A stretch of 64,000 bases of DNA, taken from positions 1-64,000 of IMG/VR virus record IMGVR_UViG_3300037419_001469, one strand, 5' to 3'. Shown here piece after piece: positions 2,494 to 61,094 of the stretch. A program made the translations under genes and the position numbers. Positions within the stretch are counted from its first letter, which is position 1. Each line of letters starts with the position of its first letter. The notes beneath the pieces were generated by a model. That model saw nothing but the letters and a program-made list of their open reading frames with translations. It had not been told where the DNA came from and did no database searches. This DNA is from a virus. Taxonomy: Duplodnaviria > Caudoviricetes.

Positions 2494-2629
2494 GATCCTC
2501 CCACTTAGTGTGATCTCCCTTCCAGCCGAAGCAGTCCAGGTAGTTCAGCAAGAACAGGACCACGAACAGGATGGTCCCGCCCAGGAACAGCACCTTCAGC
2601 ACGATCGGCAGGTGTTCAGGATTCGTCAT
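2465..2629 (-). CDS. small single-pass membrane protein (MTNPEHLPIVLKVLFLGG...)
   Basis: manual translation, GGAGAA RBS, hydrophobic stretch; not in ORF track. Confidence 0.5.
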   Translation of the reverse strand: MTNPEHLPIVLKVLFLGGTILFVVLFLLNYLDCFGWKGDHTKWEDHGQDRDSNP

Positions 2630-2753
2630 CGCTTTTCTCCCGATCCTGGAGGTACTTCCTGCAGCGACGGTTCTGCCGCCAGACCTCGATCCTGCAGGCC
2701 ACGGCTACAGCCCAGGCAATCGTGATGACGGTGCCGATGACCCAGGCGCTCAT
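2616..2753 (-). CDS. small single-pass membrane protein (MSAWVIGTVITIAWAVAVACR...)
   Basis: ATGA overlap with thyA stop; hydrophobic N-terminus, basic tail. Confidence 0.5.
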   Translation of the reverse strand: MSAWVIGTVITIAWAVAVACRIEVWRQNRRCRKYLQDREKSDDES

Positions 2754-3649
2754 ACGGCCATCGGCGCCGGCAGCGCGTCATACGATTGATAACCGACCAG
2801 CGAGAACGAGTCCGGTGTCAGGGCCGACAGGATCGCGTCGTCGCTGGCCATGCCCAACAGCGGGATCGACAGGCTCAGTGTCGGCGGCGTCAGCGGGTCG
2901 CGGTTCAGCTGCTGCTTCGCCTGTTCGAGATGATTCACGTACAGGTGCGGATTCGCCATGAAGATCGACACGCGGCGCGGAGACAAGCCGGTCATCCGGG
3001 CGAACAGGGCCAGCATCAGCGCGCACGATCCCATGTTCATCGGCAGCCCAAGGAAGACGTCCGTGCTGCGCATGTACATCGCCAGCGACAATTCCCGCTG
3101 CGCCGTATTGACCAGGAACTGGTACGACACATGACATGGCGGCAGGGCCATCTGGTCGAACTCCTCCGGCCGCCAGGCGGAAATGATGATGCGGCGGGAG
3201 GTTGGATCGTTGCGGATCATGCCGAGCGCGGTCAGCACCTGGTCGATGCGCCCGCCCGCGCCGTTGTCCCAATCGCGCCACTGCGCGCCGTAGATGCGCC
3301 CGAGGTCGTCTTCACCCTTGCGGTAATGCGAGTCCAGCCACTTGTTCGGGTGGCCGGGCAAGCCGGGATCGTTCGCGTTCGCGTCCCAAAAATTGCAGCC
3401 GAGCGCGCGGAAATCGGCAGCACTGGTCTTCCCCTGCAGGAAGCCGATCAGCTCGCCCCGGCACGCCTTGAACGCAAACCGCTTCGTCGTCGGCACCGGC
3501 ACGCCGAGAGCCAGGTCGGCCTCCAGCATCCGCGGCGGCAGCACCAGGGCATCGATGCCGGTGCGGTTTTCCTCCCGTCGCCCGCCATAGACGAGGTCCG
3601 ATAGCAGGCTCAGGTACTTGTTCTCGTTCACGCTGATGTTCATCAACAC
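2750..3649 (-). CDS. thyA: thymidylate synthase
   Basis: NRTGID, DLGRIYGAQWR, SRRIIISAW, ALPPCH (catalytic Cys), RSTDVFLGLPMN, HLYVNH motifs; true start may be ATG 3643. Confidence 0.95.
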   Translation of the reverse strand: MLMNISVNENKYLSLLSDLVYGGRREENRTGIDALVLPPRMLEADLALGVPVPTTKRFAFKACRGELIGFLQGKTSAADFRALGCNFWDANANDPGLPGHPNKWLDSHYRKGEDDLGRIYGAQWRDWDNGAGGRIDQVLTALGMIRNDPTSRRIIISAWRPEEFDQMALPPCHVSYQFLVNTAQRELSLAMYMRSTDVFLGLPMNMGSCALMLALFARMTGLSPRRVSIFMANPHLYVNHLEQAKQQLNRDPLTPPTLSLSIPLLGMASDDAILSALTPDSFSLVGYQSYDALPAPMAV

Positions 3650-3658
3650 TTCTCCTAG

Positions 3659-3979
3659 TCAGAACGGTACTTCAGTCGGCGCCGGAGTCACCGGCGAATC
3701 AAAGGCAAGGTCGAGGGCGATGTCGGCCCGGCTCTCCCCCGCGCGCAGGCGGTCAAGCAGCTGGCGTTGCGGATGGTAGAGGCAGTACGTGCTGCCGCGG
3801 CGATGGGTGTGATGCCAGCCGTCGCAGCGGCAGTAGTCCTGCCGGTTCGTTCGCTCCTTGTCGGCGTAGAAGCGCGCATGGCCGCAGGACTTGCACTTGC
3901 GCGGCCGGATGTACATCTCTACCGGCATCGCAAACACGTTCCTGCTGCGGCACTTCATGCAGCGGTAGTAGTAGCGCAT
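3659..3979 (-). CDS. zinc-ribbon hypothetical protein
   Basis: multiple CxxC pairs plus His/Cys cluster. Confidence 0.6.
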   Translation of the reverse strand: MRYYYRCMKCRSRNVFAMPVEMYIRPRKCKSCGHARFYADKERTNRQDYCRCDGWHHTHRRGSTYCLYHPQRQLLDRLRAGESRADIALDLAFDSPVTPAPTEVPF

Positions 3980-3982
3980 GGC

Positions 3983-6091
3983 TCATATCAGGATCAGGTT
4001 GTCCGCACTGGTTTCGCTTATCCCCTCGTGCGTGATGAGGATCGTCTGCGTGAAATCGCAGGCGGCAAGGAAGCCGAGCATGGCGGCGGTGCGGTCGTCG
4101 TCGCAAGCCGACATCGGCTCGTCCAGGACCAGGAAGGAACAGTCCGGCACGAACGATTTAATTAACGCCACGCGCAGAGCCATGCCGAGCACATCCAGCG
4201 CCGAGCCGGACAAGCCCTCGATCGCATGGCCGTTGACGGTGAAGCCGTTGGCAGTACGGGCCACAACCGACTTCGTGCCGCGCACCTGGGAAAACATCGT
4301 TGAGACGGACGCCAGGATGATGTCCCACAACTTGGCGGCGACGATCGGGCGCGCGGCGCGGATCTTCTTGACCAGGGTGTTGTTGAACACCAGGGCTTCG
4401 CGCTGCTGCTTCTTCGTTGCCAGCTGGTCGACCAGCTCGGCGTGCCGGCGCTTGGCCTGTTCATGCCCGGCACGGATGGCCGACAGCCGGGAGTTCAAGT
4501 CCCGGATCGATTGCTCGACCGCGGCCAGATGGCCCTCACGCTCTCGCAAGGCTTCGCGCGCGTCCATGTGCGCCACGCTGGCGGCGACGGAATCGATGGC
4601 AGCCGGCATGTCCTGCTCCTGGCTGGCGACCTCGTCCCGGGCCACTTCCAGCGCCTGCTTTGCCTCCTCCAGCCGCGACACGGCAATCGTCTTGGCCAGG
4701 TGATTCGCACTTAGTGTGTCGCGCTCGTTACGCAACGCGACCAGGTCCGGCAGTTCCTGTGGAGGCTCACCTTTCCAGGTGATCCGCGGCGGCACGAAAG
4801 CGCGGTCGACGTCGACGTACTGGCCGAACCACTCGGCATAGTTGTTCCACGGCTGCGCGCTGTTCAGCACCGCCTGTAGTGAGCGCAAGTCGGACTCCCC
4901 GGCGCGGATCAGGTCGTCCTGCGCCACGATCAGGTTGGCGAACGTCTGGCATGCGGCGTCGATCTCGGCGTTGGCGGCAGCAACTTCCGGCACCTCGCTG
5001 AAATCCTTGCCGCAGTAGCCGCAAGCCGATGCGGTCACCTTCTTCGCCCGCGCCTCCCGGATCTGCGCGTTCAGCTCTGCGCGCAGATCCTGCGCCTTCT
5101 TTACGCGCGCCAGCGTGTCGTTCAGTTCACGCTTGATGGAATCGACATCGCCTTCCCAATAGCTCTCCGGGTACGCAGGAAGCGCCTGCAGCTCACGAAA
5201 CGCCTCGGCCCGATGCGAGGCAGCCACCGCGCCGTCGACGGTCTCAGAGACCGTTTTAAGCCGCTCCTCGTCGACCTCGATCTCGGCGTCGCGCGCAAGC
5301 GCCTCGACATTTCTCTCGGCGCGGACCATCGCGCCCTGCGCCCGCTTCAGCGACTCCTCGGCCAGCCTCCGGGTCTCGGCCTGCGCCCGCGCCCGCGCCG
5401 CCGCTTCCCCGGCTTGCTCGACGGCAGCCTTGGCCTCGGCCACCTGCACCTTCGCCGCCTCCAGCGTCAGCAAGTCCTGCGCAAGCTTGCCGTCGATTGC
5501 CGTCGTATCCGGCGCCGTCAGGTCCAGCGCCTCGATGCTGTCCTCGATCATGGCGATCTCGGTGTCGAGGGCCTTGGTCGGGCCGGTCGCCAGCTTCGTC
5601 TGCGCCGCATCGAGCAGGCGGTCGAACAGGTCCATGCCGGACAGGTTCTCGATGTATTGGGCCAGCGCCTTCGGGCCGCCTTCGAGCGCGCCGCGCAGCC
5701 CGCCCTGCCCGGCGAACATCATGTTGACCGCGATGTTGCGCTCGACGCCCAGGAGTTCTTCGGCAAATTTACTCACCTCGTTCTGGCCGGTGACGGTGCC
5801 GCCGCTGTGCCGGCACTCCGCGCCGGAGTCGCCACGCTTGAACTCGTAGAGCTCGCCGCGCAGCCGGATCACCAGGACTACTTCCAGCTCGCGCACGCCG
5901 CGGCCCCAGGTGACGAGTTCGGCCAGCGGCTGCGGCATCGCCTTCACGCCGAACAGCGCATAGACCACGGCCAGCAAGAGCGACGTCTTGCCGCCCTCGT
6001 TCGGGCCGCGCACCGCATTCAAACCTTCGGTGAACGCGACCGATCTCTCGACATGCTGCCTCCAGCATGTCATCTTCAGGCTCACGAGCAT
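3983..6091 (-). CDS. SbcC/Rad50 (SMC-family) ATPase, recombination exonuclease subunit
   Basis: Walker A GPNEGGKT, long coiled coil with central CxxC hook (CGYCG), signature LSGS, Walker B LVLDEP, H-loop LITH. Confidence 0.9.
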   Translation of the reverse strand: MLVSLKMTCWRQHVERSVAFTEGLNAVRGPNEGGKTSLLLAVVYALFGVKAMPQPLAELVTWGRGVRELEVVLVIRLRGELYEFKRGDSGAECRHSGGTVTGQNEVSKFAEELLGVERNIAVNMMFAGQGGLRGALEGGPKALAQYIENLSGMDLFDRLLDAAQTKLATGPTKALDTEIAMIEDSIEALDLTAPDTTAIDGKLAQDLLTLEAAKVQVAEAKAAVEQAGEAAARARAQAETRRLAEESLKRAQGAMVRAERNVEALARDAEIEVDEERLKTVSETVDGAVAASHRAEAFRELQALPAYPESYWEGDVDSIKRELNDTLARVKKAQDLRAELNAQIREARAKKVTASACGYCGKDFSEVPEVAAANAEIDAACQTFANLIVAQDDLIRAGESDLRSLQAVLNSAQPWNNYAEWFGQYVDVDRAFVPPRITWKGEPPQELPDLVALRNERDTLSANHLAKTIAVSRLEEAKQALEVARDEVASQEQDMPAAIDSVAASVAHMDAREALREREGHLAAVEQSIRDLNSRLSAIRAGHEQAKRRHAELVDQLATKKQQREALVFNNTLVKKIRAARPIVAAKLWDIILASVSTMFSQVRGTKSVVARTANGFTVNGHAIEGLSGSALDVLGMALRVALIKSFVPDCSFLVLDEPMSACDDDRTAAMLGFLAACDFTQTILITHEGISETSADNLILI

Positions 6092-6330: not shown

Positions 6331-6509
6331 GGGTTGGCTCCTTTCTTTTCCGTCTCGATCACGCCGGCCCGGTAGCCCTGCGCGTACACCGTGTGCAGCA
6401 GCTCCATCAACACCTCGCGAGTCGAATAGCCCTTGCGCAGCTTGAAGTAGTACAGCTTGATCATGTCGCGGCAGACGCCGCTATTGAGCATTGGTCCCTG
6501 CTGGCTCAT
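6327..6509 (-). CDS. hypothetical protein
   Basis: 4-nt overlaps at both ends. Confidence 0.55.
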   Translation of the reverse strand: MSQQGPMLNSGVCRDMIKLYYFKLRKGYSTREVLMELLHTVYAQGYRAGVIETEKKGANP

Positions 6510-7594
6510 TGCTCGTCCTCCAGCAGGTACTTCACCGCGACCTGCTCCGGAGGCGTCAACTCCTCCATCAAGGCGGCCAGCACATCGACGCTGGCCAGCT
6601 TCTCGCTGGTCAGCCCGCTCATGTCATCGATGCCGTCGATGCCCTCTATGCGCACCGCGTTCGTGATGACGAGCGCCTCGCTTTTCTGGCGGTATTTCGC
6701 GATCGCGGCAATGACTTCGGAGGCTTCGTCGGCGGTGGCGGTGCCGGTGACCCTGATGAAGCGGAAGAACGAGACTGGCTCCTCGCCGCGCAGCGCGCGC
6801 CAGTCGATCTCGACGAAGTCGCCCAGGGCATCCCAGGTCTGGACCGGATACAGTCCGCTGTCATCGAGGATGTGCATGCACTTCATGCCATCCTTCTGCG
6901 CGCCGTTGTGCTCCAGGCAGTCCGCGACCGATGACGGCCACTGGTTCCCCAAAACTCTCACCTTACCGGCCTTCAGGGTCCGGGCCTGGTGCTCATGGGC
7001 GAAGACCAGCCGGTGGCCGTGGGCCAGCAGCCGGTTGACCCATTCCTCGTTGACGTTCAGCGAGTGGTCCGCCTGTTCCGCGAAACGGTTCATGCAGTTG
7101 GCATGCAGCAGCAGCCAGCCCGGCTTGACCTCCAGCGCCTTCGCCAGCTCGATGTCGAACAGGTCCTGGTTCAGCACATGCGGGACCACGTACACGTTGG
7201 CACTGGTGCCCAGGTACATCTCGGCAAAGCCGGTCGCATACACGCGCGCCTGGTCTGGCGAGTGCTTGGTCAGCAGCGCGCACAGGAAGGCGAAAGCGGA
7301 GGTCTTCTCCGAGTTCTTGGCCACGTCATGGTTGCCCTGCACCAGATGCAGCAGGCAGGCAGGATGCGCATGCATCCAGTCGGCCAGCGTGAAATACGCC
7401 TGCAGGATCTGCGACATCTCGACATTGAACGCGTCGAAGATGTCACCCAACAGGATCACGTCACACTCAGTGTGAGCAAGGGTATCGCGCAGCTGCTGCT
7501 GCAGGTAGTCCTGGATCAGCTTGCGCGTGACGATGGTAGTGCCGGCGCTGCGCACGGCGCCGAGGTGCAGATCATTGAGGATGAGAGCTTGCAT
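6506..7594 (-). CDS. SbcD/Mre11-like metallophosphoesterase nuclease
   Basis: start MQALILNDLHLG; DxH, GDIFD, GNHD and AHEH motifs; adjacent to SbcC-like ATPase. Confidence 0.9.
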   Translation of the reverse strand: MQALILNDLHLGAVRSAGTTIVTRKLIQDYLQQQLRDTLAHTECDVILLGDIFDAFNVEMSQILQAYFTLADWMHAHPACLLHLVQGNHDVAKNSEKTSAFAFLCALLTKHSPDQARVYATGFAEMYLGTSANVYVVPHVLNQDLFDIELAKALEVKPGWLLLHANCMNRFAEQADHSLNVNEEWVNRLLAHGHRLVFAHEHQARTLKAGKVRVLGNQWPSSVADCLEHNGAQKDGMKCMHILDDSGLYPVQTWDALGDFVEIDWRALRGEEPVSFFRFIRVTGTATADEASEVIAAIAKYRQKSEALVITNAVRIEGIDGIDDMSGLTSEKLASVDVLAALMEELTPPEQVAVKYLLEDEQ

Positions 7595-7844
7595 GGTTTC
7601 TCCACGGTGAAGAAGCGAGGGCCGTAGGCCAGGTATGCCAGGCGCGCGGCGCGAGTTCGGTATCGAGCTGCAGCTGCCGCCGCACGGCGCGCACGGTAAG
7701 CCGGCGCATCGCGGGCGACATCGCATCCCACTCTGCCCAGGTCAGCTCCTGCGCGAACGCATGGCGCTGGCCGAAGGCATCGATGCAGGTCGCCTCGATG
7801 GCGATGCCGACGCTGGAGACGTAATGGCGGGAGACGATTTTCAT
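7572..7844 (-). CDS. hypothetical protein
   Basis: tiles between neighbours. Confidence 0.5.
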   Translation of the reverse strand: MKIVSRHYVSSVGIAIEATCIDAFGQRHAFAQELTWAEWDAMSPAMRRLTVRAVRRQLQLDTELAPRAWHTWPTALASSPWRNHASSHPQ

Positions 7845-8054: not shown

Positions 8055-8966
8055 TCACACCGCCATGTCGTCGGCGCTGCGGAAACCCTTCCAGATCGGG
8101 AAGCGCGGCTTGTCCTTGACGCCGATCGGGAAGTGCTTGTAGGTGATGATCTTGCCGAGATAGGCTTCGCGCTCGTTCCAGATTTGCTGGCGCAATTCGA
8201 TGGTCAAGCCGACGCCGGTGCCGCAGGAAAATTCGACGCCGGTCTTGATGTCGCGCACGATGAACTTGCCGAGCGTACCCTTGCCGACCATGCCCGCCTT
8301 GTGGCTGGACCGCTGGCTGTGGCCGAGCTCGTTGACCGTCTTCTCGTTCGTGTTCTCGTTCTGTTCCTCGAAGCCGATGATGATCGCCTCGGCGTCAGCG
8401 AAACGCTTGACCTTCAGGATGATGCCTTCCTTCACTGTCGAGCGGCCTTGCTTGTACGGCGCATGCGGGCAGCGGAACATCGCGCCCTCATAGCCCTGCT
8501 CCAGCCACGCGCCTTCCAGCGCCTCCATCTCGGCAAGGCTCTCGATCTCCTTCTGATCCACCAGCACGACGTCAGGGTGTCCCAGGTTCAGCGTGCTGCG
8601 CGCCGCTTCGGCAAGCCGTGCGTAATAGGGCTCATCCATGTAGCCGATATGGTCGAACACATAGAAGCGCACGTTGTCGGCGCTCTTGCCCGACTTGCTC
8701 ATCACGACGGAGTTGGTGTCGCGGTAGCAGGTGGGTGAGGTGGGGTCGCCGTAGATCAGCTCGCCGTCCAGGTGCAGGCAATCCTTGAACTTCTCCCGCA
8801 CATGCGGGTTCGGGATCGGCTTCATGTTGCGCGACATCAGCACGCCGTTATGGTTGATGGCGCGGATGCCATCGAGCTTCACACTAAGTAGGCCGGGGAA
8901 CCGCAGTTCGGCCTCAATGAAATCCTCCGCGAGCAGAGGCTTAAACGGTTTCAGCATCGTCGTCAT
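8055..8966 (-). CDS. ATP-dependent DNA ligase
   Basis: KLDGIR adenylation motif, LDGEL, FYVFD, EGAMFR, LKVK, C-terminal OB fold (GTG...PRFP). Confidence 0.93.
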   Translation of the reverse strand: MTTMLKPFKPLLAEDFIEAELRFPGLLSVKLDGIRAINHNGVLMSRNMKPIPNPHVREKFKDCLHLDGELIYGDPTSPTCYRDTNSVVMSKSGKSADNVRFYVFDHIGYMDEPYYARLAEAARSTLNLGHPDVVLVDQKEIESLAEMEALEGAWLEQGYEGAMFRCPHAPYKQGRSTVKEGIILKVKRFADAEAIIIGFEEQNENTNEKTVNELGHSQRSSHKAGMVGKGTLGKFIVRDIKTGVEFSCGTGVGLTIELRQQIWNEREAYLGKIITYKHFPIGVKDKPRFPIWKGFRSADDMAV

Positions 8967-10215: not shown

Positions 10216-10557
10216 TCATGACGCCTCGACCTCCATGTCGTCGGCGTCGTAGGACATCTCGTCGTAGCGCACCAGCTCGATGCCCTCGCTGCCGTCCATC
10301 GGTGGCCAGCCCTCGACACCCCTATTGAACTGGTCTACGACATCTCCCCACGGTAACAGGGACAGCCGCAGCACTTCCGCGGCCAGCATTTTCAGCACGG
10401 CGTGCAGCACCGAGCCCGCGCGCCGCACGCGCCAGTCGTCATCGCTCCAGAAGCTGTTGATCTCGTGGAGCTTCGCTTCCGTCATCACGTCGTGGTCGAT
10501 CCTGACCACGACCTGGTGCCGGTCGTTGTAGGTGATGGTGTATTCCTTGGTATTCAT
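10216..10557 (-). CDS. DUF2528-like phage protein
   Basis: YTITYNDRHQVVVRIDH...LHEINSFWS...EGWPPMDGSEGIEL recalled pattern. Confidence 0.6.
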   Translation of the reverse strand: MNTKEYTITYNDRHQVVVRIDHDVMTEAKLHEINSFWSDDDWRVRRAGSVLHAVLKMLAAEVLRLSLLPWGDVVDQFNRGVEGWPPMDGSEGIELVRYDEMSYDADDMEVEAS

Positions 10558-12740
10558 GCCGCCTCCGCCTGCGCAAAGATTTCCGCCAGTGCCTTCTCGA
10601 TTTTTACGGGATCGACCGTGCTGCCGACTTCCCACTGCTGGCCGAAGTTCGGGCCGATGGAAATCTCGGACACGACCGGCACCTTCATCGTCGCGTAAGG
10701 CATCGTCATCTCGCGATGGATTATGGTCAGCGCCGGGATCAAGTCGTCAACCGCAATCGAGAACACGAACTCATCGTGGACCGGCGCAATGAAGCGGCAG
10801 TCGTAGTCGAAGCACACGCCCGAGTCCCATATCCGGCCTGCGGCCAGCTTCGTCATTTCGGCCGCACTGCCCTGCACTTCGAAGTTCGGCCCCTGGCGCC
10901 CTGCCTTGTTGGCGGTGGCGTTGTCGGCCATCAGCGCGGCAAGGTGGCGCCGACCGCCGAGATAGGTCTTCGCGTAGCCGGTGCGCATGACGCGCTCGCG
11001 CACTTCATCCTTCCACACCGACACGCCCGGGAACATCTTCTCGCGCGCGTCCAGGAACGACTGCGCATCCTGCACCGGGATGATCAGCTGGTACGACAGC
11101 GTCAGCGCCTGGGCATCGTATTGCGCGCCAAAATTGACGTTCTTCGCCACCTTGCGCAGGTCGTCGGCCATCTTCGCGATGGCTTCGTCCTCGTGCTTGC
11201 GCAGCTTCGTGAAAACGTCGTACAGGTCGTCCGCCGTCCTCGGCGCTTCGGCCTTGATCAAGGCCACCATTTCATCCAGCTTCGCGCGGCCCCATTTCTT
11301 TTCCATCGCGCCGGACGCGGTGATCGAATGGATGTCCTTCAACCGGTCACCGATGTAGCAGGCCAGCATCGCTTCGTCGCCGGACATGTCGGCGGCAAGC
11401 CTCAGTTCCTGGCCGGAGAAGTCGAGCGACACAACCACGGCATTGCGGTGGTGCGGCACGATCATTTCGCGGATCTTGACGCCCTCTCCCTTCTTCGGCA
11501 GCTGCTGCAGGTTCGGTCCCGAGCTGGAGTAGCGGCGCGTCACCGTCGCGCACTGGTTCATCGACGAATGGATCTTGCCGTCTTTCCAGTGCTTCAGCGG
11601 CGGGTATTTGTAGTAATAGAAATTGCGGCGCGTGGTGATCTTCTTCATCGCCATCATCGCTTCCAGGATGTCCCGCGCGTCGCCGGTCGCATCCATCGCC
11701 AGCGCGAACTGCACCGCGACCTCATTCGTCTTCGCCTTGGCCCGCACCAGTTCCCACTCAGTGGGATCAAGCTGCGGCTCGACGCCTTCCATCGCCGCCT
11801 TGTTGAATTTCGTGACCGCCCGGGCCAGGTCGCGGTTGTGCTGCCGCTCCAGCGGCGTGACCTTGTTCAGCACGCGGATCGGCAGCTTCAAGGTGTCGTA
11901 CAAAAACTCGCGCATCTGCTTCGGACTGCCGATGTCGATCACCGGATTGTTCCGGTACTTCGCCATCAGCAAGCCGTTCACATAGCGCAGGTCCCCGGCT
12001 TCGATCGCGCCGATCAGGTCCGTGATCCAGGGCTGCGACGCATACAGGTCTTCCGGCACTTCCGCCGTGATCGCCGCGGCCAGCTTGTCCAGATTTCTCG
12101 CCTTGGATTCTGGCCGGAAGCCGACCAGTTCCTCGAACGCGTCCTTGGCGGTGGCGGCGGTCAGCTCGGTATAGGGCTTCCACAGCTTGTTGATGACGCC
12201 GGAGCGCTCCAGCGTCTCGGCCAGCTTTACGCGCGCCGCTTCATACTTGCGGTCGTCCTCGCGCTCCAGCTGCTTCAGGCGCTCGATCGACACATCCGCG
12301 CCGGTGACGAAGCCGAGTGCCGTCAGGTAGGCCGGCTTGACTTCGACTTCCTCGTACACCGACAACGTGTCCTCGATCTCCATCAGGATAGAGAAGTGGT
12401 TGAACAAGGCGGCGGTGCAGATCGTGTCGTCCGCGCCATAGGCCAGCACATGCTGCGCTGGCAGCTCGTTCATGCGGAATACGCGCGTCTGCTCGGTCGC
12501 GGGGATCGCGTCGCGCGTCTTGGTCGCGGCCTGGGCGTTGTCGGCAATGATGCGCCCGCCCGGATACGGAAATTGCCCGATCGGCGCGGTGATCGTGGTC
12601 ACGCTCGCATAGTCGGCTTGCTCGTAGCCAAGCACGGTGCGGCTGTTCTGCTTCAGGCCGCCCGGACGGTTCTCGTCGACGTAGTTCGACATGATGCGGG
12701 TATCCCACACGTTGGGAATGAAGCCCCTCCACTTGTTCAT
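10554..12740 (-). CDS. polA: family A DNA polymerase, C-terminal part (rest of 3'-5' exonuclease plus polymerase domain)
   Basis: WDTRIM, ExoIII YGADD, PNLQQLP, motif A DFSGQELR, motif B KNVNFGAQY, motif C VHDEFV; GAGGAGG RBS before ATG 12740. Confidence 0.9.
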   Translation of the reverse strand: MNKWRGFIPNVWDTRIMSNYVDENRPGGLKQNSRTVLGYEQADYASVTTITAPIGQFPYPGGRIIADNAQAATKTRDAIPATEQTRVFRMNELPAQHVLAYGADDTICTAALFNHFSILMEIEDTLSVYEEVEVKPAYLTALGFVTGADVSIERLKQLEREDDRKYEAARVKLAETLERSGVINKLWKPYTELTAATAKDAFEELVGFRPESKARNLDKLAAAITAEVPEDLYASQPWITDLIGAIEAGDLRYVNGLLMAKYRNNPVIDIGSPKQMREFLYDTLKLPIRVLNKVTPLERQHNRDLARAVTKFNKAAMEGVEPQLDPTEWELVRAKAKTNEVAVQFALAMDATGDARDILEAMMAMKKITTRRNFYYYKYPPLKHWKDGKIHSSMNQCATVTRRYSSSGPNLQQLPKKGEGVKIREMIVPHHRNAVVVSLDFSGQELRLAADMSGDEAMLACYIGDRLKDIHSITASGAMEKKWGRAKLDEMVALIKAEAPRTADDLYDVFTKLRKHEDEAIAKMADDLRKVAKNVNFGAQYDAQALTLSYQLIIPVQDAQSFLDAREKMFPGVSVWKDEVRERVMRTGYAKTYLGGRRHLAALMADNATANKAGRQGPNFEVQGSAAEMTKLAAGRIWDSGVCFDYDCRFIAPVHDEFVFSIAVDDLIPALTIIHREMTMPYATMKVPVVSEISIGPNFGQQWEVGSTVDPVKIEKALAEIFAQAEAA

Positions 12741-14083
12741 GCCAGTGCCTCCTCGTCGGCCTGCAGCGGTCCCAGGTCCTCGTAGATGACGGGAAGCTCG
12801 AACTGCGCGTTGTGAACGATCGTGCGCAGCGTCGGCGGGATCGCCTGCAGCACGGCCTTGGCCTGCTCCTTCGTGATGTTGGTCACGCCGGGCTGCTCCA
12901 GGTGAGCATGGGTCCAGTAGAAGGTGTACTGGTTGTTCTTGCCGAACGTGGTGGCAAAGCCGGTCAGGGTGGATCCAAAGACATCGACGCCGAGCCGGTC
13001 TTCCTCGCCATCGACCAGGCCCTGGGCGATTTTCAGCCAATCGTCGGAGCGGTCCGAAGTCGACGTCTCGATGTCGAACGCGACGAACGGAGATTCCGCC
13101 AGCTTGGCCTTGAAGAAGGCCAGCGCATCGTCGTAATTGCCCGAGTGGATCAGGCGCACGGCGCCGGCCCACTGCTTCAGGCGCTCATCGGTAGTCGCGT
13201 CGCGCGGCTTGACCATGCCGGCCGTCCACTGCAGCGGCTTGCGCAAGGTGTTGACCTTCTCCGGGTACAGCTTGGCCACGATGAAGCTGTTCATCGAGCC
13301 CTGCATGTCGTCCAGGATCTTCTGCAACGGCTTGAACTCGGCCACGTCCTCTGCCAGGCGGGCCAATTGCCTCGTCACGTACAGCTGGTGCAGGTTTTCC
13401 AGGCCCTCGACGCCGAAATTGACCAGCAGATTCAGCCAGGCGGTTTCGCCAAAGCCCTTCGCGCCGGGGATCTTGTCGGATGTATCCCCGACCAGCGCCT
13501 TGAACACGGTGATGTATTTGCAGGGGAACGGCCCGAGCGGGTTTTCCGTCTCGCGCCGGCCATCGCGCCACAGGCAGACGCCGGTCGTCGGCGTGGAGCC
13601 GTCCGAGATCAGGACAGCAAGGTCGCGATCCGCCGTGTCGATGATCTTCTCGCCCTTCAGGTGCAGCGCAAGATACGCCAGCACGTCGTCGGCCTCGACA
13701 CCGTCCTGTGTGACGGCCTGCGCGCCGAGCGCGGTGAAGGTGGTGATCAGGCGCTGCCTCAGCTTGTCGAATTCGAGGTAGGCTTCGGGCGGGTGCGACG
13801 GCGCATCGCCGCCCTTGTAGGTCGGCATGACGCTCTGGCGCAGCAGCTTGCTGTGCAAGCCCTCGACCACCAGGATCATGTCGACCGGGGACAGGCCGTT
13901 GGCATCGAGCGCGGCAACCAGGTGGTTGATCGCATTCTCGTAGCCATATTCGGCGGAATTGACGAGGGTCTTGCGGCCGTTGAATTCGACGGTGAAGCCG
14001 AATTCCTTGTCGGTGCCGGCCTTCAGGGAAGTCCACAGGATCGAGGACAAGTCGACGAGGAGTCGCTTGGATGGCGTCTGCAT
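12737..14083 (-). CDS. PolA N-terminal part: 5'-3' exonuclease/flap endonuclease plus first half of 3'-5' exonuclease
   Basis: LLVDLS, EADDVLA, DTADRD, GDTSDKIPG(A)KG(F)G H3TH motif; then ExoI FDIETS and ExoII HNAQFE near C-terminus. Confidence 0.88.
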   Translation of the reverse strand: MQTPSKRLLVDLSSILWTSLKAGTDKEFGFTVEFNGRKTLVNSAEYGYENAINHLVAALDANGLSPVDMILVVEGLHSKLLRQSVMPTYKGGDAPSHPPEAYLEFDKLRQRLITTFTALGAQAVTQDGVEADDVLAYLALHLKGEKIIDTADRDLAVLISDGSTPTTGVCLWRDGRRETENPLGPFPCKYITVFKALVGDTSDKIPGAKGFGETAWLNLLVNFGVEGLENLHQLYVTRQLARLAEDVAEFKPLQKILDDMQGSMNSFIVAKLYPEKVNTLRKPLQWTAGMVKPRDATTDERLKQWAGAVRLIHSGNYDDALAFFKAKLAESPFVAFDIETSTSDRSDDWLKIAQGLVDGEEDRLGVDVFGSTLTGFATTFGKNNQYTFYWTHAHLEQPGVTNITKEQAKAVLQAIPPTLRTIVHNAQFELPVIYEDLGPLQADEEALA

Positions 14084-14664: not shown

Positions 14665-15225
14665 TCAGACCGGCTGGTGCGGTATCGCATCGGGGATGCC
14701 GTATCCCACGGCAGTCCCGATCAGGGAAGCATCGATGGTCCCACCTAGTGGGAGGACATCGATGGAGGCGGCCTCGGAGGCCGAGTCCGCGATCGTGAAA
14801 TGGTGCGGGCTCTTGTCGGCGTGCAGTGCCTGCAGCCTCGTCACATGCGGCGTCATCTCGGTCAGCAGGCGGCGGTAGCCGCTGACCTCGCCGCGCACAT
14901 ACTGGCGGTCGTCGATCAGCGTGCCGTTCGCCTCCGCGTCGACCAGGATCGCCATGCAGGCCAGCGCGTGGCCCATGTGCGGGATGCCCGAGTCCGGATC
15001 GGTCCACTCCCCTTCGAACCAGGCGGCCAGGTGGCGGCGCGCGGCGGCGATGTAGACCGAGGCCCGCACCTCCGTTGCCCGCCAGTTCAAGCGGCCATAC
15101 TTCAGCGCGCCATCGAGCAGGCCGAGCGCACCAAGCATCGTTGCCGTCTCCGGCCACAGCGTCAGATCCAGCTTGGTCGAGGCGATCGAGTCCTTGGGAT
15201 TGGGAGACTTGGGCGAGGTGTCCAT
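14665..15225 (-). CDS. dATP/dGTP diphosphohydrolase-domain protein (DUF5664-like)
   Basis: NPKD...K..L.L.P, GALKYGRLNWR, AARRHL.AW.EGE..DPDSGIPH..HA. Confidence 0.8.
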   Translation of the reverse strand: MDTSPKSPNPKDSIASTKLDLTLWPETATMLGALGLLDGALKYGRLNWRATEVRASVYIAAARRHLAAWFEGEWTDPDSGIPHMGHALACMAILVDAEANGTLIDDRQYVRGEVSGYRRLLTEMTPHVTRLQALHADKSPHHFTIADSASEAASIDVLPLGGTIDASLIGTAVGYGIPDAIPHQPV

Positions 15226-15304
15226 TGGAGGCGGAGGTCTGCAAGGAGGTTTGATCTGAGGCAAGATCCTACACGAAAACTTTCGGCGCGGAATGGTTGC
15301 TGGC

Positions 15305-15335
15305 AATAAAAAGGCCCGGGCGCAGCCGGGCCTTG
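15305..15335 (-). terminator. intrinsic terminator
   Basis: AAGGCCCGG/CCGGGCCTT stem followed by TTTTATT on minus strand. Confidence 0.75.
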
Positions 15336-44088: not shown

Positions 44089-44101
44089 GTCAGCCTCCCA
44101 T

Positions 44102-46910: not shown

Positions 46911-46914
46911 CGCC

Positions 46915-47022
46915 ATGAGCCGTTTCGACAGCTTCGACCTGCTGGAGTGGCTGATCGCCTGCCTGTGCTGGCTCGCCTGGGCCGCCTATGCCTCCGACCT
47001 TGACCGGGACAACGACCAATGA
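46915..47022 (+). CDS. 35-aa membrane peptide
   Basis: GAGG RBS; MSRFDSFDLLEWLIACLCWLAW. Confidence 0.45.
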   Translation: MSRFDSFDLLEWLIACLCWLAWAAYASDLDRDNDQ

Positions 47023-47666: not shown

Positions 47667-47974
47667 TGGAAAACGACGATTCCGTAAAGCAATATGCCAA
47701 CCGCAAGGCCCGAACGGAGGCGAAACGGCAACTGGCAGCGCAATACAACGTGTCCATTCGCACAATTAACAGGCAGAAACTATGTGACAAGCCATTGAAA
47801 AGCGTGGAAATTCGTGCAAAACGAACGGAAATTCATGCAAAACACAGAGAAAAGTGTGAAAAAATGGCGTCTCTTGTCGTAAATCGCAAGGTTTCCGCGC
47901 AAGAAGGGGCGATACAGTGTGGCATCAGCTTGCGCCAAATGTATCGGTATGTCGCGCTGCAAAAAGGAAAATAA
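47666..47974 (+). CDS. small basic protein with two HTH motifs
   Basis: RQLAAQYNVSIRTINR and QEGAIQCGISLRQMYRY; start overlaps upstream stop. Confidence 0.65.
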   Translation: MENDDSVKQYANRKARTEAKRQLAAQYNVSIRTINRQKLCDKPLKSVEIRAKRTEIHAKHREKCEKMASLVVNRKVSAQEGAIQCGISLRQMYRYVALQKGK

Positions 47975-48030
47975 GTCGAAAATGCAACGTAGTACGGCAA
48001 GGTAATTTGCACAGGAATAGACGAAAACGC

Positions 48031-48039
48031 TGCTACAAT
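48031..48039 (+). promoter_or_regulatory. extended -10 promoter
   Basis: TGc-TACAAT ~70 nt upstream of 48109. Confidence 0.45.
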
Positions 48040-48108
48040 CCGCGACTTTTGCCTATCGCAGCCCCTGCCAGTACAAGAAACGGCGCGAAACGACTTTAAG
48101 GATGAGAC

Positions 48109-48456
48109 ATGTTGACTGATTCAACGATGAAAGCCGAGGGCTACCTGATCGAGACGATGGGCGGAGGCAGAGACCTGAGATTCAACGCGCCTCTGAATGA
48201 CCCAACGATCCTCGCGGTGACGCCGCTGTACAAGCGCGTGCCGCGCCGCGGCTTTTCCGATGCCCGGATACTCGAAATCGCTGGCGCGCAGGCCGCGCCG
48301 GCGCCGTTCCAGGCTTACATCCTGCGCGCGATGCGCAACATGATGCACGAGCTGCAGAGGTCGGAGACGGATGAGAGGCAATACCCGCCCGCCGTGCTGC
48401 CCGACCTGTCTCCGCCGAGCGTCCCACTCAGTGCGACCCAGGACGCCACCGAATGA
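48109..48456 (+). CDS. hypothetical protein
   Basis: AAGGA RBS; overlaps next ORF. Confidence 0.55.
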   Translation: MLTDSTMKAEGYLIETMGGGRDLRFNAPLNDPTILAVTPLYKRVPRRGFSDARILEIAGAQAAPAPFQAYILRAMRNMMHELQRSETDERQYPPAVLPDLSPPSVPLSATQDATE

Positions 48457-49468: not shown

Positions 49469-49709
49469 CGCCATCAAGCGCGAATGCACGGACCCGCTGG
49501 TGCATGACGGCTATTACGAGGTCTCGCCGGAGGCGGCTGCGCTGAAGAAGGTCAACGAGGAATTCGACGCCCTCGAACACGAGGCGCAGCGGGAAGTCCA
49601 CGAAATTTACGAGACCCTGATCGCCGTGGTGGAAGACCGCGGCGAAGCGGGCGTGTTGGCGCTGGCCCTGCTGTGCGCCGAAATCGATGCCGGAGTCAGA
49701 AGAACATGA
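49461..49709 (+). CDS. small helical protein, paralog 4 of 4
   Basis: GAGGG RBS before MDNAIK; shared motif. Confidence 0.65.
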   Translation: MDNAIKRECTDPLVHDGYYEVSPEAAALKKVNEEFDALEHEAQREVHEIYETLIAVVEDRGEAGVLALALLCAEIDAGVRRT

Positions 49710-49990
49710 GCTTCATCAGGGAGAGTTGTCAGATCATCAGAGACGTCGCCGTCTCGCCATTCCGCAGCGAGGTCGGAGGCGATGCCTGGGAGGGCGTCAA
49801 GGCGCAGGGCTATTTCCTGTTCGTGGCAGCCCTGTCGCTGCTGGTACTTGCCCTATTCCCGATCAGCATCCCGGGCCTGGTATGGCTGCAGCGCGCCAGC
49901 GAGCGGCGCTACGCCGCGCAGCGCGCCGCCATCGCCGCGCGCCACGCCGCATTCCGGGAAGACGTGGTGAGCCGTTACGGCCTGGAGTGA
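49706..49990 (+). CDS. membrane protein
   Basis: hydrophobic segment; GGAG RBS. Confidence 0.55.
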   Translation: MSFIRESCQIIRDVAVSPFRSEVGGDAWEGVKAQGYFLFVAALSLLVLALFPISIPGLVWLQRASERRYAAQRAAIAARHAAFREDVVSRYGLE

Positions 49991-49995
49991 GGTCG

Positions 49996-51732
49996 ATGAC
50001 GGAGGCCACACTTAGTGGGACCGTAGAGGTCATCCACCGCAACCCGATGCTCAATGACCCGGTGTTCCAGCGGCATGTGGCACGCCTGCGCAGCTCGCTG
50101 TCGGCGCATTCACGCGACACGATCTGTCAATTCATTACCGAAAACACATTCCTGCGCAGCGCGCCGTTTTCTTTCAAGGACCACGAATACCAGCAATTCA
50201 TCCTGGAAGATAAATCCGCGGAAAAGGTCATCATCAAAAGCGCGCAAATGGGCATTTCCGAAATGTCCGCGCGCATGGCCCTGGCAATGGGTAATTTGAT
50301 CGACGGCTTTTCCACGATTTACACGCTGCCTTCGGCACTTGCTGCAGCGAATTTCATGAAAACCCGGATCGATCCGGTGATCGATTCGTCGCCGTATTTG
50401 TCGGAGGCCGTTTCCAAGGAAATCGACAATACGCTGATCAAGAAATTCGGGGAATCCTATTTGTACCTGAAAGGGGCGCAAGTCGATTCCCAGGCGATTT
50501 CGGTGCCGGCCGATATGCTCATTGGCGACGAGGTCGATAATTCGAACCAGGACGTATTGACGCTATTCGAATCCCGCTTGATCCATTCGCCCTATGCGTA
50601 CAAGGTTTATTTGTCCACGCCCTCGGTGCCGGGATATGGTATCGACGCGCGCTATAAACAATCGCGCCGCCATGTCCACATGTGCAAGTGTGTGCATTGC
50701 AATCACTGGTTTGAGCCTGATTATTTTCGGGACGTTAAAATTCCGAAGTTCAAAGGCGAGATTGGCGACATCGTCAAGGCCACTTTCAGCGACCCCGTCT
50801 TCCTCTGGCAGCAAGCCTATGTCGCCTGCCCGGGCTGCGGCAAACCTGCGGATTTGTCGGAACCGAACCGCACCTGGGTCTGCGAAAACCCGAATGATGC
50901 TTATGTCGCAGCCGGATTCCGCGTGTCGCCATTTTCCTGCCCGAATATCATTAAAGCGTCGGCGCTCGTAAAGGCGTCGGTCGACTATGCGCGCGTGCAG
51001 GATTTCCATAACCAGCGCCTGGGCATGCCGCTCGAAGACAAGGAATCGACGCTGACGGCCGAGGAATTGCGCAATTGCCTGGTCTCCGATTTCGGCGCGA
51101 CCGGGGCGTTTTCGTATGTCATGGGCCTGGATATGGGCAATGTCTGCCATTGCACGATCCTCGCCTGTTTGCCCGACAATCAATACGTCGTGGTTCACCG
51201 CGAGAGAATCCCGCTATTCCAGGTATTCGAGCGCCGGCAGGAATTGTCGCGACAATGGCGAATCCGCATTTGCGTCGTCGACCACGGCCCGTATACCGAA
51301 ACGGTCTATCGCATGCAGCAATACGACCGCAGCGTATTTGCCGGCGTGTATGTGCGCACCAAGGGCATCGACCTGTATCGAATCAAAGACCAGGAAGAAG
51401 ACAAGGAAAAGGGCAAGCAGGAATTGCGGCAGGCGAATATCGCGCGCGACAAGGTGTTCGACCTGATCATGCTGATGCTGCGCGCCGGGCAATTCAAGGT
51501 CGTCGCTGGCTCGGAGGATGACCTTTGGATCCAACAGATGACCTCGCAAAAACGGGTGCGCGAGTTCGTCAACGACGAGCTGGTATTCGTGTGGGCGAAG
51601 ACCGATGGCAATGACCATTACCACCACAGCATGCTGTATGCCTACATCGCCAGCCAGATCCTCGGCGTGGCCGGTAACACCCTTGCGCTGCCGTCGCTGA
51701 TCAGCAAATTCAAGGTTACGGCAGGGCAATAG
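49996..51732 (+). CDS. terL: terminase large subunit, lambda gpA-like
   Basis: KSAQMGISE Walker A, LIGDEVD Walker B, LSTP, CxxC/CxxC zinc module, GLDMG nuclease motif. Confidence 0.9.
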   Translation: MTEATLSGTVEVIHRNPMLNDPVFQRHVARLRSSLSAHSRDTICQFITENTFLRSAPFSFKDHEYQQFILEDKSAEKVIIKSAQMGISEMSARMALAMGNLIDGFSTIYTLPSALAAANFMKTRIDPVIDSSPYLSEAVSKEIDNTLIKKFGESYLYLKGAQVDSQAISVPADMLIGDEVDNSNQDVLTLFESRLIHSPYAYKVYLSTPSVPGYGIDARYKQSRRHVHMCKCVHCNHWFEPDYFRDVKIPKFKGEIGDIVKATFSDPVFLWQQAYVACPGCGKPADLSEPNRTWVCENPNDAYVAAGFRVSPFSCPNIIKASALVKASVDYARVQDFHNQRLGMPLEDKESTLTAEELRNCLVSDFGATGAFSYVMGLDMGNVCHCTILACLPDNQYVVVHRERIPLFQVFERRQELSRQWRIRICVVDHGPYTETVYRMQQYDRSVFAGVYVRTKGIDLYRIKDQEEDKEKGKQELRQANIARDKVFDLIMLMLRAGQFKVVAGSEDDLWIQQMTSQKRVREFVNDELVFVWAKTDGNDHYHHSMLYAYIASQILGVAGNTLALPSLISKFKVTAGQ

Positions 51733-51771: not shown

Positions 51772-53289
51772 ATGATCAAGAGCTTGCTGTCCTCCTGGGG
51801 CATCTCCGCCGCCACCGCCATCCCGACTGACCCTGCGCCGAAGGTGCGCAGCAAGCGTCAGGCGCTGCCCTCTTACCTGCTGACGGCCAAGCCGCCGCAG
51901 ACGCCGATGCCGGTGACGGACCGGCAGCTGGCGAACACGGACACCGTGCCGACCTTTGCCGGCGCCGGCAGCACGAGCAAGACGCTGCGGGCGATGGGCT
52001 ACATGTCGCCCGAGTTCTCCTCGGCCATCTTCTCGTACCTGCGCGTGGGCATCCCGAACGGCTATGTCGCTGTCGCGAAAAATCCGGACGGCAGTTTTAA
52101 CCCGGAGGCGACCCAGGCGCTGCAGCAGATCATCGCGCGCTTCGATGTGCTGCCGGATTACACGCAGGGGTTCAATGGCGTGGCCTCCTTGCGCAGCCTG
52201 TCGGAATCGCTGGCCAAGGACTTGCTGTACGAGGGCGCGATGTGCGGAGAGCTCGTGCTGGACAAGAGCTACCTGCCCTCGCGCATCCAGCCGATCTCCG
52301 TGTACAACATGCGGCAGCAGCCAGACAAGGATGGCTACCTGGTGCCGGTGCAGTACATCGGCGGCTCGCACACGGTGCTCGATGCGCCGACGATTTTCTA
52401 TGTCGCGCTGGACCAGGCGCTGATCGATGCGTACCCGTCCTCGCCAATGGAATCCGCGATCAAGGCGGTCCAGTTCTCGGAGAATTTCGTCAACGACGTG
52501 CAGCGCGTGATGAAGCGCGCCGTCCACCCGCGGCTGACGGTGACCCTGGACGAGGACAAGTTCCGCAAGTCCGTGCCGCAGGACATCGTCAACGACCCGG
52601 TGAAGCTGATCGCGTACCAGAACGAGGTCGTCGCCAATATCCAGGCAATGATCAACGGCCTGCAGCCGGAGGATGCGCTGGTGTATTTCGACATGCTCGG
52701 CATCCAGCTGATGAACAACGGCAACCAGTCGCTGTCGCACGAATACACGTTCATCCAGGACATGGCCAACGCGAAGATGGCCTCTGGCGCGAAAACCATG
52801 CCGGCCGTGCTCGGCATGGGCAGCGGCAGCCAGAACGTCGCTTCCACCGAGACGATGCTGTTCGCGAAAGCGGTCAGCGGCGCGATCACGAAGAAGCTCG
52901 ACGAATTCTATTCCCGGATTTTCACGCTGGCCGTGCGCCTGCTCGGCTACGACGTGGTGGCCGAGTTCACCTATGACCCGATCGACCTGCGCCCGGAGTC
53001 GGAGCTGGAGTCGTTCCGCTCGGTCAAGCAGGCCCGCATCCTCGAGCTGCTGTCGCTCGGCTTGCTCACCGACGAGGAAGCGAGCCTGCAGCTGACCGGG
53101 AGATTACCGCCGAAAGGCTACGTCCCACTAAGTGGGACCCAATTCAAGAGCGCGGGGCCGGCAGAGGCGACCGATCCCACCTCCAACGCCGGCAGCGCCG
53201 CCAACAAGGCGATAAAAGCCGACAGCGCGGGCGTAAAAGGTCAGAACAAGAAGGCGAATCCGCAACAGGCGGCGCCGACCAAGCATTGA
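51772..53289 (+). CDS. portal protein
   Basis: 505 aa, position between TerL and protease. Confidence 0.75.
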   Translation: MIKSLLSSWGISAATAIPTDPAPKVRSKRQALPSYLLTAKPPQTPMPVTDRQLANTDTVPTFAGAGSTSKTLRAMGYMSPEFSSAIFSYLRVGIPNGYVAVAKNPDGSFNPEATQALQQIIARFDVLPDYTQGFNGVASLRSLSESLAKDLLYEGAMCGELVLDKSYLPSRIQPISVYNMRQQPDKDGYLVPVQYIGGSHTVLDAPTIFYVALDQALIDAYPSSPMESAIKAVQFSENFVNDVQRVMKRAVHPRLTVTLDEDKFRKSVPQDIVNDPVKLIAYQNEVVANIQAMINGLQPEDALVYFDMLGIQLMNNGNQSLSHEYTFIQDMANAKMASGAKTMPAVLGMGSGSQNVASTETMLFAKAVSGAITKKLDEFYSRIFTLAVRLLGYDVVAEFTYDPIDLRPESELESFRSVKQARILELLSLGLLTDEEASLQLTGRLPPKGYVPLSGTQFKSAGPAEATDPTSNAGSAANKAIKADSAGVKGQNKKANPQQAAPTKH

Positions 53290-56622: not shown

Positions 56623-56650
56623 TACCAACTTCACACTCAGTGGGAATCCC

Positions 56651-60140: not shown

Positions 60141-60170
60141 GAGGCCGCCTCCGGGCGGCCTCTGTTTTTC
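60141..60170 (+). terminator. intrinsic terminator
   Basis: GAGGCCGCC-TCCG-GGCGGCCTC then TGTTTTT. Confidence 0.8.
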
Positions 60171-60199
60171 TCGACAGGGTTTTTGCCTGGAGGTAAGAT
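60171..60199 (+). promoter_or_regulatory. sigma70-like promoter
   Basis: TCGACA-17 nt-TAAGAT. Confidence 0.6.
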
Positions 60200-60258
60200 T
60201 GCGCGGTCTTTGACGAAGACGCAGTGCTTATCCAGATACCTTGACTAGGAGAACTTTC

Positions 60259-60669
60259 ATGCTCGATCTCTTTTCCCAATTTGCCACCGATGCCCAAGCC
60301 GAACTCAACGGCGTGCGGGTCCCGTACCAGGGCGTCGTGTTCATCATCGCCCGCTCGGGCAACAAGCGTTACGGCAAGCTGCTGGCCGAAAAATTCAAGA
60401 AGCACCAGGTGCAGCTGGAGCTGAAGGACGACGCCGCCGACGAGCTGTCCGACAAGCTGATGGCCGAGATCATGGCCGAGACCATCCTGCTCGGATGGGA
60501 AGGCGACATCGGCTACAAGGGTGAAAAACTCGCCTATTCGAAGGAAAACGCGGTCAAGGTGCTGATGCACCCGGACTTCCGCGCCTTCATCAGCAAGCTG
60601 GCCGACGATCGCGAGAAATTCCGCGCCGACGCCATCGACGAGAAGGTGGGAAACTCCGCAGCGTCCTGA
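60259..60669 (+). CDS. tail assembly chaperone (G)
   Basis: AGGAGA RBS; between tube and TMP; slippery GGGAAAC near end. Confidence 0.8.
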   Translation: MLDLFSQFATDAQAELNGVRVPYQGVVFIIARSGNKRYGKLLAEKFKKHQVQLELKDDAADELSDKLMAEIMAETILLGWEGDIGYKGEKLAYSKENAVKVLMHPDFRAFISKLADDREKFRADAIDEKVGNSAAS

Positions 60670-61004
60670 CCTGGGAAATGCAGTGGGGCAGCTCGGTCAA
60701 ATCCCTGCTGGAGATCAAGAAGGCCAGCGGCAAGACGCCCCTGGCCTTGCTGAACCGCCCCCTGCTGCGCGCTGACTGCCTGGACTGCAAGAAGGCGTTC
60801 CACTTGCTGTCTGGCCAGCGGCAATCCGACCAGACCGGGCCGCAACCGATCGCGATCTCGGAAATCGAGTCGTACCTGCGCTTGAAGCGCATCGACGACG
60901 AGGACGAGATCGACACCTACCTCGAAGCCATCACCGCCCTCGATGCGCTGTGGCTGGAGAACGTGCGCGAGAAGATGGCGCAGGCGATCAAAAGTCCCAC
61001 TTAG
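60648..61004 (+). CDS. tail chaperone T segment reached by -1 frameshift (G-T fusion)
   Basis: G GGA AAC at 60648-60654; -1 frame is continuous with ORF 60678-61004. Confidence 0.75.
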   Translation, partial: GKLRSVLTWEMQWGSSVKSLLEIKKASGKTPLALLNRPLLRADCLDCKKAFHLLSGQRQSDQTGPQPIAISEIESYLRLKRIDDEDEIDTYLEAITALDALWLENVREKMAQAIKSPT

Positions 61005-61094
61005 TGGGGATTCCCACTGAGTGGGATTTTGTTTCCTACCGGGAAGAATTGCCTGGTGATAATATCGACCTATCCCCGTTGACCATCCGCCATC

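Follow-up and report, generated by a model that had tools for sequence, protein, structure and literature searches.

A dispersed palindrome array in an uncultured phage

The stretch of DNA analysed here (the window) comprises bases 1-64000 of an IMG/VR virus record (IMGVR_UViG_3300037419_001469; 84,785 bp, 62 % GC, completeness estimate 98 %); the phage under study, represented by the complete record, is referred to as G000. Its genome carries ~31 copies of a short palindrome, and these are predicted to form a selected array of docking sites for the phage's own orphan ParB/KorB/Noc-type protein, a reading to which a probability of about 0.5 is assigned. The original prediction, made from the window, had proposed either parS-like sites for this protein or programmed nick or recombination sites. 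Binding by the ParB-like protein is the best-supported part of that proposal, from the fold of the protein, the co-occurrence of protein and motif, the co-variation of recognition helix and site flanks, and the presence of a site near parB in relatives, but this evidence is circumstantial and the same palindrome occurs in an unrelated fragment. A parS-like role in partition is not upheld, as the 98 %-complete genome contains no ParA-type ATPase or tyrosine integrase, and the nick or recombination branch is unsupported, the site being a perfect dyad with no strand bias.

Enrichment and consensus of the palindrome

The window contains 16 copies of the 15-bp palindrome CACTNAGTG, and the full genome 23. 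The 15 perfect cores listed originally are all present, but the list was incomplete, a core at 11755 having been missed. Dinucleotide shuffles of the window gave 0.57 expected copies (maximum 2) against 16 observed. Shuffles that preserve the encoded proteins and the codon usage of every gene, by permuting the synonymous codons of each gene and the bases of each spacer, gave 0.44 (maximum 3) against 23. The enrichment is thus ~50-fold and persists under both types of shuffle, including the codon-aware background under which it had been suggested that it might vanish.

Cores with one mismatch are not in excess overall (11 found, 11.5 expected), and the eight that were counted as degenerate copies were selected by flank signature alone; the seven one-mismatch copies reported previously all exist and each has this signature. 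Together with the 23 perfect copies these give ~31 sites per genome, with the consensus TC[C/A]CACTNAGTG[G/T]GA. Among the 46 half-sites of the perfect copies, position -7 is T in 34, position -6 is C in all 46 and position -5 is C or A in 41, followed by C-A-C-T, in agreement with the flank symmetry described before. The centre base is free (A10, G5, C5 and T3 on the coding strand). A scan of viral contigs for the variant TCACACT gave single chance matches only.

Selection on the DNA of the sites

Thirteen of the 23 perfect copies are not wholly within a gene, though 81 % of the genome is coding (P=2e-4), which indicates intergenic enrichment. Of all 31 sites, 17 are contained in genes and 14 fall wholly or partly between them. 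The in-gene perfect copies occupy long genes (SbcC, SbcD, polymerase, primase, helicase, portal and tape measure). Mid-gene copies had been claimed for SbcC, SbcD, primase, SNF2 helicase, TerL and portal; this is correct except for TerL, where the copy covers codons 5-7 of the real gene, and further mid-gene copies are found in the DNA polymerase and tape measure genes.

In-gene sites are spelled with the rarest codons, CTA (2 % of Leu), AGT (3 % of Ser) and ACA (5 % of Thr), and in the called genes 10 of 44 AGT codons and seven of 46 CTA codons fall within sites. These codon-usage counts bear out the rare-codon embedding noted earlier. A comparison is provided by G001 (IMGVR_UViG_3300028586_000001), a syntenic genome of 86.8 kb with 58 % GC, direct terminal repeats and 35-64 % protein identity to G000. 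The portal peptide PLSG is encoded by CCA CTA AGT GGG in G000 but by CCC TTG TCA GGC in G001. In the primase gene, the site lies at the same alignment column in both phages (codons for F-T-L-S-A), with ACA and AGT kept while neighbouring synonymous positions differ, and it has been retained across ~50 % protein divergence. The use of the rarest codons within sites, the different spelling of the portal peptide in G001 and the retention of the primase site show that selection acts on the DNA itself.

Most in-gene copies encode (T/P)-L-S in one frame, which might suggest a by-product of a repeated peptide, or an effect of chance or composition. However, half of the copies are intergenic, the in-gene copies are spread over unrelated proteins in two frames, and the predominant frame is merely the one that the motif permits. 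Together with the shuffles and the codon analysis, which refute it, these findings leave an artefact with practically no chance of being the explanation.

The sites are also more evenly spaced than expected. The coefficient of variation of the gaps among the 31 sites is 0.59, where random placement would give 0.95 (P=0.001), and it is 0.51 when pairs less than 300 bp apart are merged (P=8e-5). The mode is near 3 kb, with 13 of 30 gaps at 2.75-3.57 kb where 2.8 were expected, in a size window picked after inspection of the data. The only long site-free gap (7.3 kb, 41168-48421) is the divergent control region between the two arms of the genome.

A duplex site for a dimeric protein

The choice of C or A at position -5 is independent between the two arms of a site, with nine CC, seven mixed and two AA copies among the 18 informative copies (8.7, 7.6 and 1.7 expected). 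Symmetric perfect copies can fold into hairpins with stems of 6-7 bp and a 3-nt loop (-10 to -11.5 kcal/mol), while mixed copies, such as those at 2502 and 56634, do not fold, and the arm sequence is invariant without co-variation. A monomer or iteron reading was rejected, as lone half-sites are not enriched. Given these four observations, the site fits a double-stranded DNA site for a two-fold symmetric dimeric protein rather than a hairpin. The copy at 22718 and the tandem pair at 60998/61015 have been co-opted as terminator-like hairpins with U-tracts.

The candidate binding protein

The protein encoded at 24241-25344 on the minus strand has 367 amino acids and contains the motifs GFNPR and DGECRYTAA (GxxRxxA), a helix-turn-helix (HTH) and an acidic tail with WPF. 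GFNPR and DGECRYTAA are invariant across 11-13 homologs, and the latter aligns to GERRWRA of Noc. The N-terminal part has the ParB/Srx CTPase fold, with Foldseek matches to ParB, Noc and KorB at E=1e-9 to 1e-7. The HTH matches Pfam HTH_ParB at residues 148-209 with E=4e-4, short of the curated cut-off. In the AlphaFold model, predicted local confidence (pLDDT) exceeds 90 across the core, including residues 150-240, and structural matches span both domains, the best being KorB 8qa9_B (template-modelling score, TM, 0.67), with the KorB DNA-binding domain 1r71_C at TM 0.70. A conserved C-terminal segment (LPD...Y..K..G..LK.L..LQ), the candidate dimerisation domain, has a pLDDT of 60-75 and no structural match. 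According to the model, the protein is a two-domain ParB/KorB/Noc-type protein.

Among 33 homologs from a profile search, several are encoded on contigs of 84-87 kb that share the gene order. The acidic C-terminal tail (24241-24300) ends in G-x-W-P-F, a feature common to several but not all homologs (P0002-P0004, P0029), and this ending may be a docking peptide for a partner.

Co-occurrence and co-variation in relatives

G001 has its own array, with seven perfect copies (0.55 expected), ~10 one-mismatch copies and altered flanks, CTACACTNAGTGTAG. Conservation of position is not the rule, as the primase site alone is common to both phages and the rest have turned over. Copy number and coverage therefore appear to matter more than exact site location.

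The co-occurrence check suggested with the original prediction was run across the relatives. Both the ParB homolog and the motif are present in eight genomes or genome fragments of the clade (G000, G001, L275, L276, L287, L288, L289 and L290), with three copies of the variant CACTAGGTG in 5.5 kb of L276. Neither is present in five Lana-like isolates (Lana, PMBT3, UAntarctica, SHOU24 and PS14A.1), and Lana is without any enriched palindrome. The recognition helix SASYIDKL accompanies TC[C/A] flanks and SIGWIDRL accompanies CTA flanks, the two helices differing at positions that contact bases in ParB and Noc (PMC7383237). A site precedes parB by 37-41 nt in L275, L287 and L288, and by 65 nt in L276. 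In sequence, the half-site T[C/T]NCAC is similar to that of parS, TTNCAC (PMC7383237).

A second palindrome, family A (CATTTACNGTAAATG), has 13 copies, all in the early leftward arm (25345-45483), and its terminal ATG is the gene start in nearly all of them. Its densest cluster falls in the 7.3-kb region that is free of CACTNAGTG sites. Analogues (TTAACNGTTAA and CTAACNGTTAG) are present in L276 and L277, and none in G001 or L275. Family A is limited to the sub-clade of G000 and does not track ParB.

Proposed role

Dimers of the ParB-like protein would recognise each dyad through their HTH domains and, by analogy with ParB, Noc and KorB, might close into CTP-dependent clamps that slide over the neighbouring few kilobases. 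An array with a pitch of ~3 kb could in this way load the protein across the entire phage chromosome. As there is no ParA partner and there are no lysogeny genes, the role would not be classical partition. More likely roles are the marking, organisation, silencing or protection of phage DNA on a genome-wide scale, as for KorB on RK2. In its most specific form, in which a partner-less CTP-clamp ParB coats the whole genome for self-marking against phage or host nucleases, for DNA organisation or condensation, or as a KorB-like timing switch, the proposal is tentative and the odds are against it.

Alternative explanations

Several observations weigh against binding of the palindromes by the ParB-like protein. 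The second arginine of GERR is a cysteine in this protein (GECR), which makes CTP use uncertain, and the distance between the half-sites exceeds that in parS by 3 bp. In G000 and G001 themselves, no site precedes parB. A ParB homolog of 227 amino acids in L274 (10001-10684) ends after the HTH, with the C-terminal third absent, and the 20.7-kb stretch that carries it contains no motif. Co-occurrence and co-variation are not independent lines of evidence, as they come from essentially two clades sharing many other genes. Furthermore, an unrelated phage fragment of 46-48 % GC (L015, L278, L279 and variants) contains GACTTCCCACTNAGTGGGAAGTC eight times in ~10 kb, and within the ~10 kb examined it encodes no ParB and no protein common to G000 or G001; attempts to extend it by exact-protein look-ups and a metagenome scan in search of a ParB returned the same ~12-kb region only. 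An identical palindrome of 15-17 bp in an unrelated fragment makes a different shared binder, of phage or host origin, possible. The dyads might accordingly be bound by another dimeric protein, such as a conserved, degenerate HNH-like protein (41980-42759), a small phage protein or a conserved host factor, with ParB as a bystander, and many genes besides parB distinguish the motif clade from the Lana-like phages. However, no other DNA-binding candidate was found among the proteins scanned, the flank differences between G000 and G001 track the ParB recognition helix, a site lies just upstream of parB in three or four relatives, and the bacterial and archaeal genomes, among the matches listed for the 15-mer, contain scattered singles and no dispersed host array, which is a weak negative. 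Another binder is on balance unlikely, though it retains appreciable weight. One exception among the bacterial matches is a Bacteroidetes metagenome-assembled genome (L206, 5946-6128) with six exact 15-mers in 183 bp, in pairs 21 bp apart, a tandem array that is probably unrelated to that of the phage.

Two further readings assign the palindrome a function other than binding by a dimer, and both are improbable. As a hairpin, it could be an RNA terminator, attenuator, processing site or stabiliser, or an extruded-DNA promoter of the N4 type. The folding energies of the perfect copies, the terminator-like loci at 22718 and 60998/61015, and the unrelated fragment, in which every copy is intergenic and 28-37 nt upstream of a start codon and two copies lie downstream of perfect sigma-70 promoters (TTGACA-17-TATAAT), agree with this. 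Pairing does not co-vary, however, and in the seven mixed copies among the 18 informative ones the stem is broken, while at least seven copies lie deep within long genes on either coding strand. With U-tracts at two loci only, the sites as a class do not behave as structured RNAs or intrinsic terminators. No phage RNA polymerase was found among the open reading frames (ORFs) scanned, large ORFs without assigned function included, and sigma-70-like promoters of the late arm are at chance level and do not adjoin motif copies. As an enzyme target, the palindrome could mark programmed nicks (of the T5, phiKMV or tf type), cleavage, recombination or base modification, for example by a phage nuclease such as the HNH-like protein, followed by ligase repair. 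The regular spacing agrees with such a use, and so does the presence of genes for a ligase, an HNH-like protein, SbcCD, a FEN-like exonuclease and a resolvase-like protein. Known phage nick sites of these types have an asymmetric consensus and are cut on one strand only, whereas the perfect dyad in G000 has a free centre and shows no strand bias, and symmetric nicking at it would reduce the genome to pieces of ~3 kb. A role of ParB as a thymine dioxygenase activator was rejected, as published activators of that class are without a DNA-binding domain (PMC13229309) and no TET/JBP match was found among the neighbours of parB, nor was a DNA methylase.

The unrelated fragment has other features of its own. 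The palindrome is present between nearly all genes of L015 (1-4519), L278 (1-8419) and L279 (1-5992), and a nearby non-coding region is rich in GTTCC/GGAAC half-site-like words. One copy has a perfect sigma-70 promoter upstream, and 10 nt after this copy stands GCTCTTTAACAA, the rrn-type boxA sequence.

Location of the sites in the window

Sites are given as 15-bp intervals within the window, with no strand assigned to a dyad. At the left end, a perfect core with mixed half-sites (TCC/TCA) at 2499-2513 is intergenic, 9 nt upstream of the ATG of 2041-2493(-), and overlaps its Shine-Dalgarno sequence. Perfect cores follow within the SbcC-like gene 3983-6091(-), at 4705-4719 where the site is spelled ACA CTA AGT, and within the SbcD-like gene 6506-7726(-), at 7461-7475. 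A one-mismatch copy with a TCA flank (8879-8893) lies in the DNA ligase gene, the perfect dyad overlooked in the original prediction (11752-11766) in the DNA polymerase I gene 10554-13172(-), and a one-mismatch copy with TCC..GGA flanks (14739-14753) in a MazZ-like gene, 14665-15306(-). The primase site that is common to G001 is a perfect core at 18772-18786 in 17282-20149(-), and the SNF2 helicase gene 20813-22201(-) has a perfect core at 21177-21191. Past the end of 22750-23229(-), the perfect core at 22715-22729 tops a terminator stem of 10 bp that has a U-tract on the minus strand; this is the terminator-stem copy described originally.

One-mismatch copies are present at 23500-23514 (TCA..TGA flanks), 26590-26604 (TCC..GGA), 32301-32315 (TCC), 36504-36518 (TCA) and 37842-37856 (TCC..GGA). 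Interspersed with these are a perfect core at 29432-29446, intergenic and 7 nt past the stop codon of 29450-29785(-), and a perfect dyad at 34151-34165, ~30 nt ahead of a probable ATG that has GGAGGG before it. The last site ahead of the control region is a perfect core at 41153-41167, between 40725-41135(-) and 41189-41704(-). Beyond that region, perfect cores are found at the 3' end of 48109-48456(+), at 48422-48436 and 20 nt upstream of the following start codon, and at 50006-50020 in TerL; a perfect dyad occupies 53123-53137 in the portal gene, where the peptide is PLSG. A perfect core with mixed half-sites (56631-56645) follows the terminator of the major capsid gene and comes before the ATG at 56651. 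The tandem pair just before the tape measure gene, also reported originally, consists of perfect cores at 60995-61009, which includes the TAG stop of 60678-61004, and at 61012-61026, 72 nt before that tape measure gene. In RNA, the two copies can together form a single 18-bp hairpin followed by UUUUGUUU.

Genome and gene content

From its gene content, G000 is a virulent-looking, uncultured siphovirus of ~85 kb with its own replication genes. The leftward arm encodes thymidylate synthase, SbcCD, ligase, a resolvase-like protein, DNA polymerase I, a FEN-like exonuclease, RNase T, primase, SNF2 helicase, the ParB-like protein and numerous small genes without assigned function. The rightward arm encodes TerL, portal, protease, major capsid protein, tail genes and a tape measure protein of 2655 amino acids. 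The ParA-type ATPase profiles PF13614 and PF01656 are unmatched in the genome, while controls match in 14 of 14 genomes. No immunity repressor or integrase was found in G000, the integrase search having covered the tyrosine class but not serine recombinases or protelomerases. The closest isolates are Pseudomonas phages Lana, PMBT3 and UAntarctica and Vibrio phage SHOU24, at ~30 % protein identity, and a megablast comparison of the late arm with cultured phages gave no match.

The longest ORF for TerL (from 49687, within 49673-50020) is not the real gene; the phase of GC content at third codon positions shows a separate hydrophobic ORF of ~95 amino acids (49706-49990), and TerL starts at ~49996, after a GGAG-TGAGG ribosome-binding site. 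The product of the MazZ-like gene has an N-terminal dATP/dGTP diphosphohydrolase domain (PF18909), and 22750-23229 encodes a separate MazG/PRA-PH-like protein. Together with the thymidylate-synthase homolog, these proteins hint at nucleotide-pool manipulation or a modified base.

Significance

Orphan ParB-like genes are common in phages and are without an assigned role, which the array would supply if its predicted link to the protein is true. The dispersed dyad repeats of non-temperate phages (Cluster O, 2015) are still unexplained, and G000 offers a testable pair of one protein and one 15-bp site, together with a natural specificity variant (TCC flanks accompany SASY and CTA flanks SIGW in the recognition helix). 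The ~3-kb spacing suggests a physical spreading distance. If the ParB-like protein binds the sites, the sliding-clamp biology of ParB and KorB would take in virulent phage genomes as well as plasmids and chromosomes; if it does not, a dimeric binder yet to be named is under unusually strong selection. Should the same logic underlie the Cluster O arrays, this would constitute a widespread, undescribed system for organising phage chromosomes.

Comparison with known systems

No paper in the literature searched assigns such an array in a virulent phage to a phage ParB, but several systems share part of its features. The stoperators of Cluster A mycobacteriophages are asymmetric, orientation-biased sites bound by the immunity repressor of temperate phages. 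Like these, the sites in G000 are short, conserved and present genome-wide by the dozen, including within operons; unlike these, they are symmetric, and with no repressor or integrase found the array is not of the stoperator type. In the plasmid-prophage N15, dispersed SopB sites serve plasmid partition with SopA. The virulent phage phi29 has five parS sites for the host Spo0J, which act in spore entrapment (PMC2731898). Both resemble G000 as phage genomes with several dispersed sites for ParB-family proteins, but the sites in G000 do not match host parS, number ~31 and occur alongside a phage-encoded ParB in the absence of ParA.

ParB-parS and Noc-NBS have the consensus sequences TGTTTCAC-GTGAAACA and TATTTCCC-GGGAAATA, respectively (PMC7383237). 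The proteins belong to the same family as that of G000, and the sites are palindromes for two HTH domains with a similar half-site; Noc, like the G000 protein, has many dispersed sites and no ParA. The half-sites in G000 are 3 extra bp apart, the helix has WSA or KSI at the contact positions where ParB has KSR, and the array is on a phage genome outside any partition or nucleoid-occlusion context.

The closest published observation is that of the Cluster O mycobacteriophages, which carry 17-bp dyads (TGTTCGGNNNCCGAACA), 34 of them in Corndog, for which the authors predicted a dimeric binder (PMC4351075); stoperators are discussed in the same paper. As in G000, these have invariant inverted arms and a variable centre, exceed 30 copies in a non-temperate siphovirus that encodes a protein with a parB-like domain, and are in many cases intergenic, with about a third within genes and most away from promoters. 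The two arrays differ in sequence, host phylum and phage lineage, and the authors drew no link between the repeats and gp90. For G000, the analysis shows that the spacing is even, that sites are embedded by means of rare codons and that they co-vary across the clade with a full ParB-HTH protein.

The closest mechanistic model is KorB on the IncP plasmid RK2, which binds 12 OB operators (TTTAGCSGCTAAA) and acts as a sliding clamp in long-range silencing (PMC11790492; PMC13584720). The array of G000 is unrelated to OB in sequence and denser (~31 sites in 85 kb against 12 in 60 kb), and its carrier is a virulent-looking phage rather than a plasmid, with no IncC/ParA and no promoter association seen; binding and CTP use are predicted for G000. 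In both systems, however, a ParB-family protein with a CTPase fold and an HTH occurs together with an odd-length palindrome with a free centre base, present in many copies across the replicon, far from promoters and within genes, and in the structural model the fold of the G000 protein is closest to that of KorB (8qa9_B).

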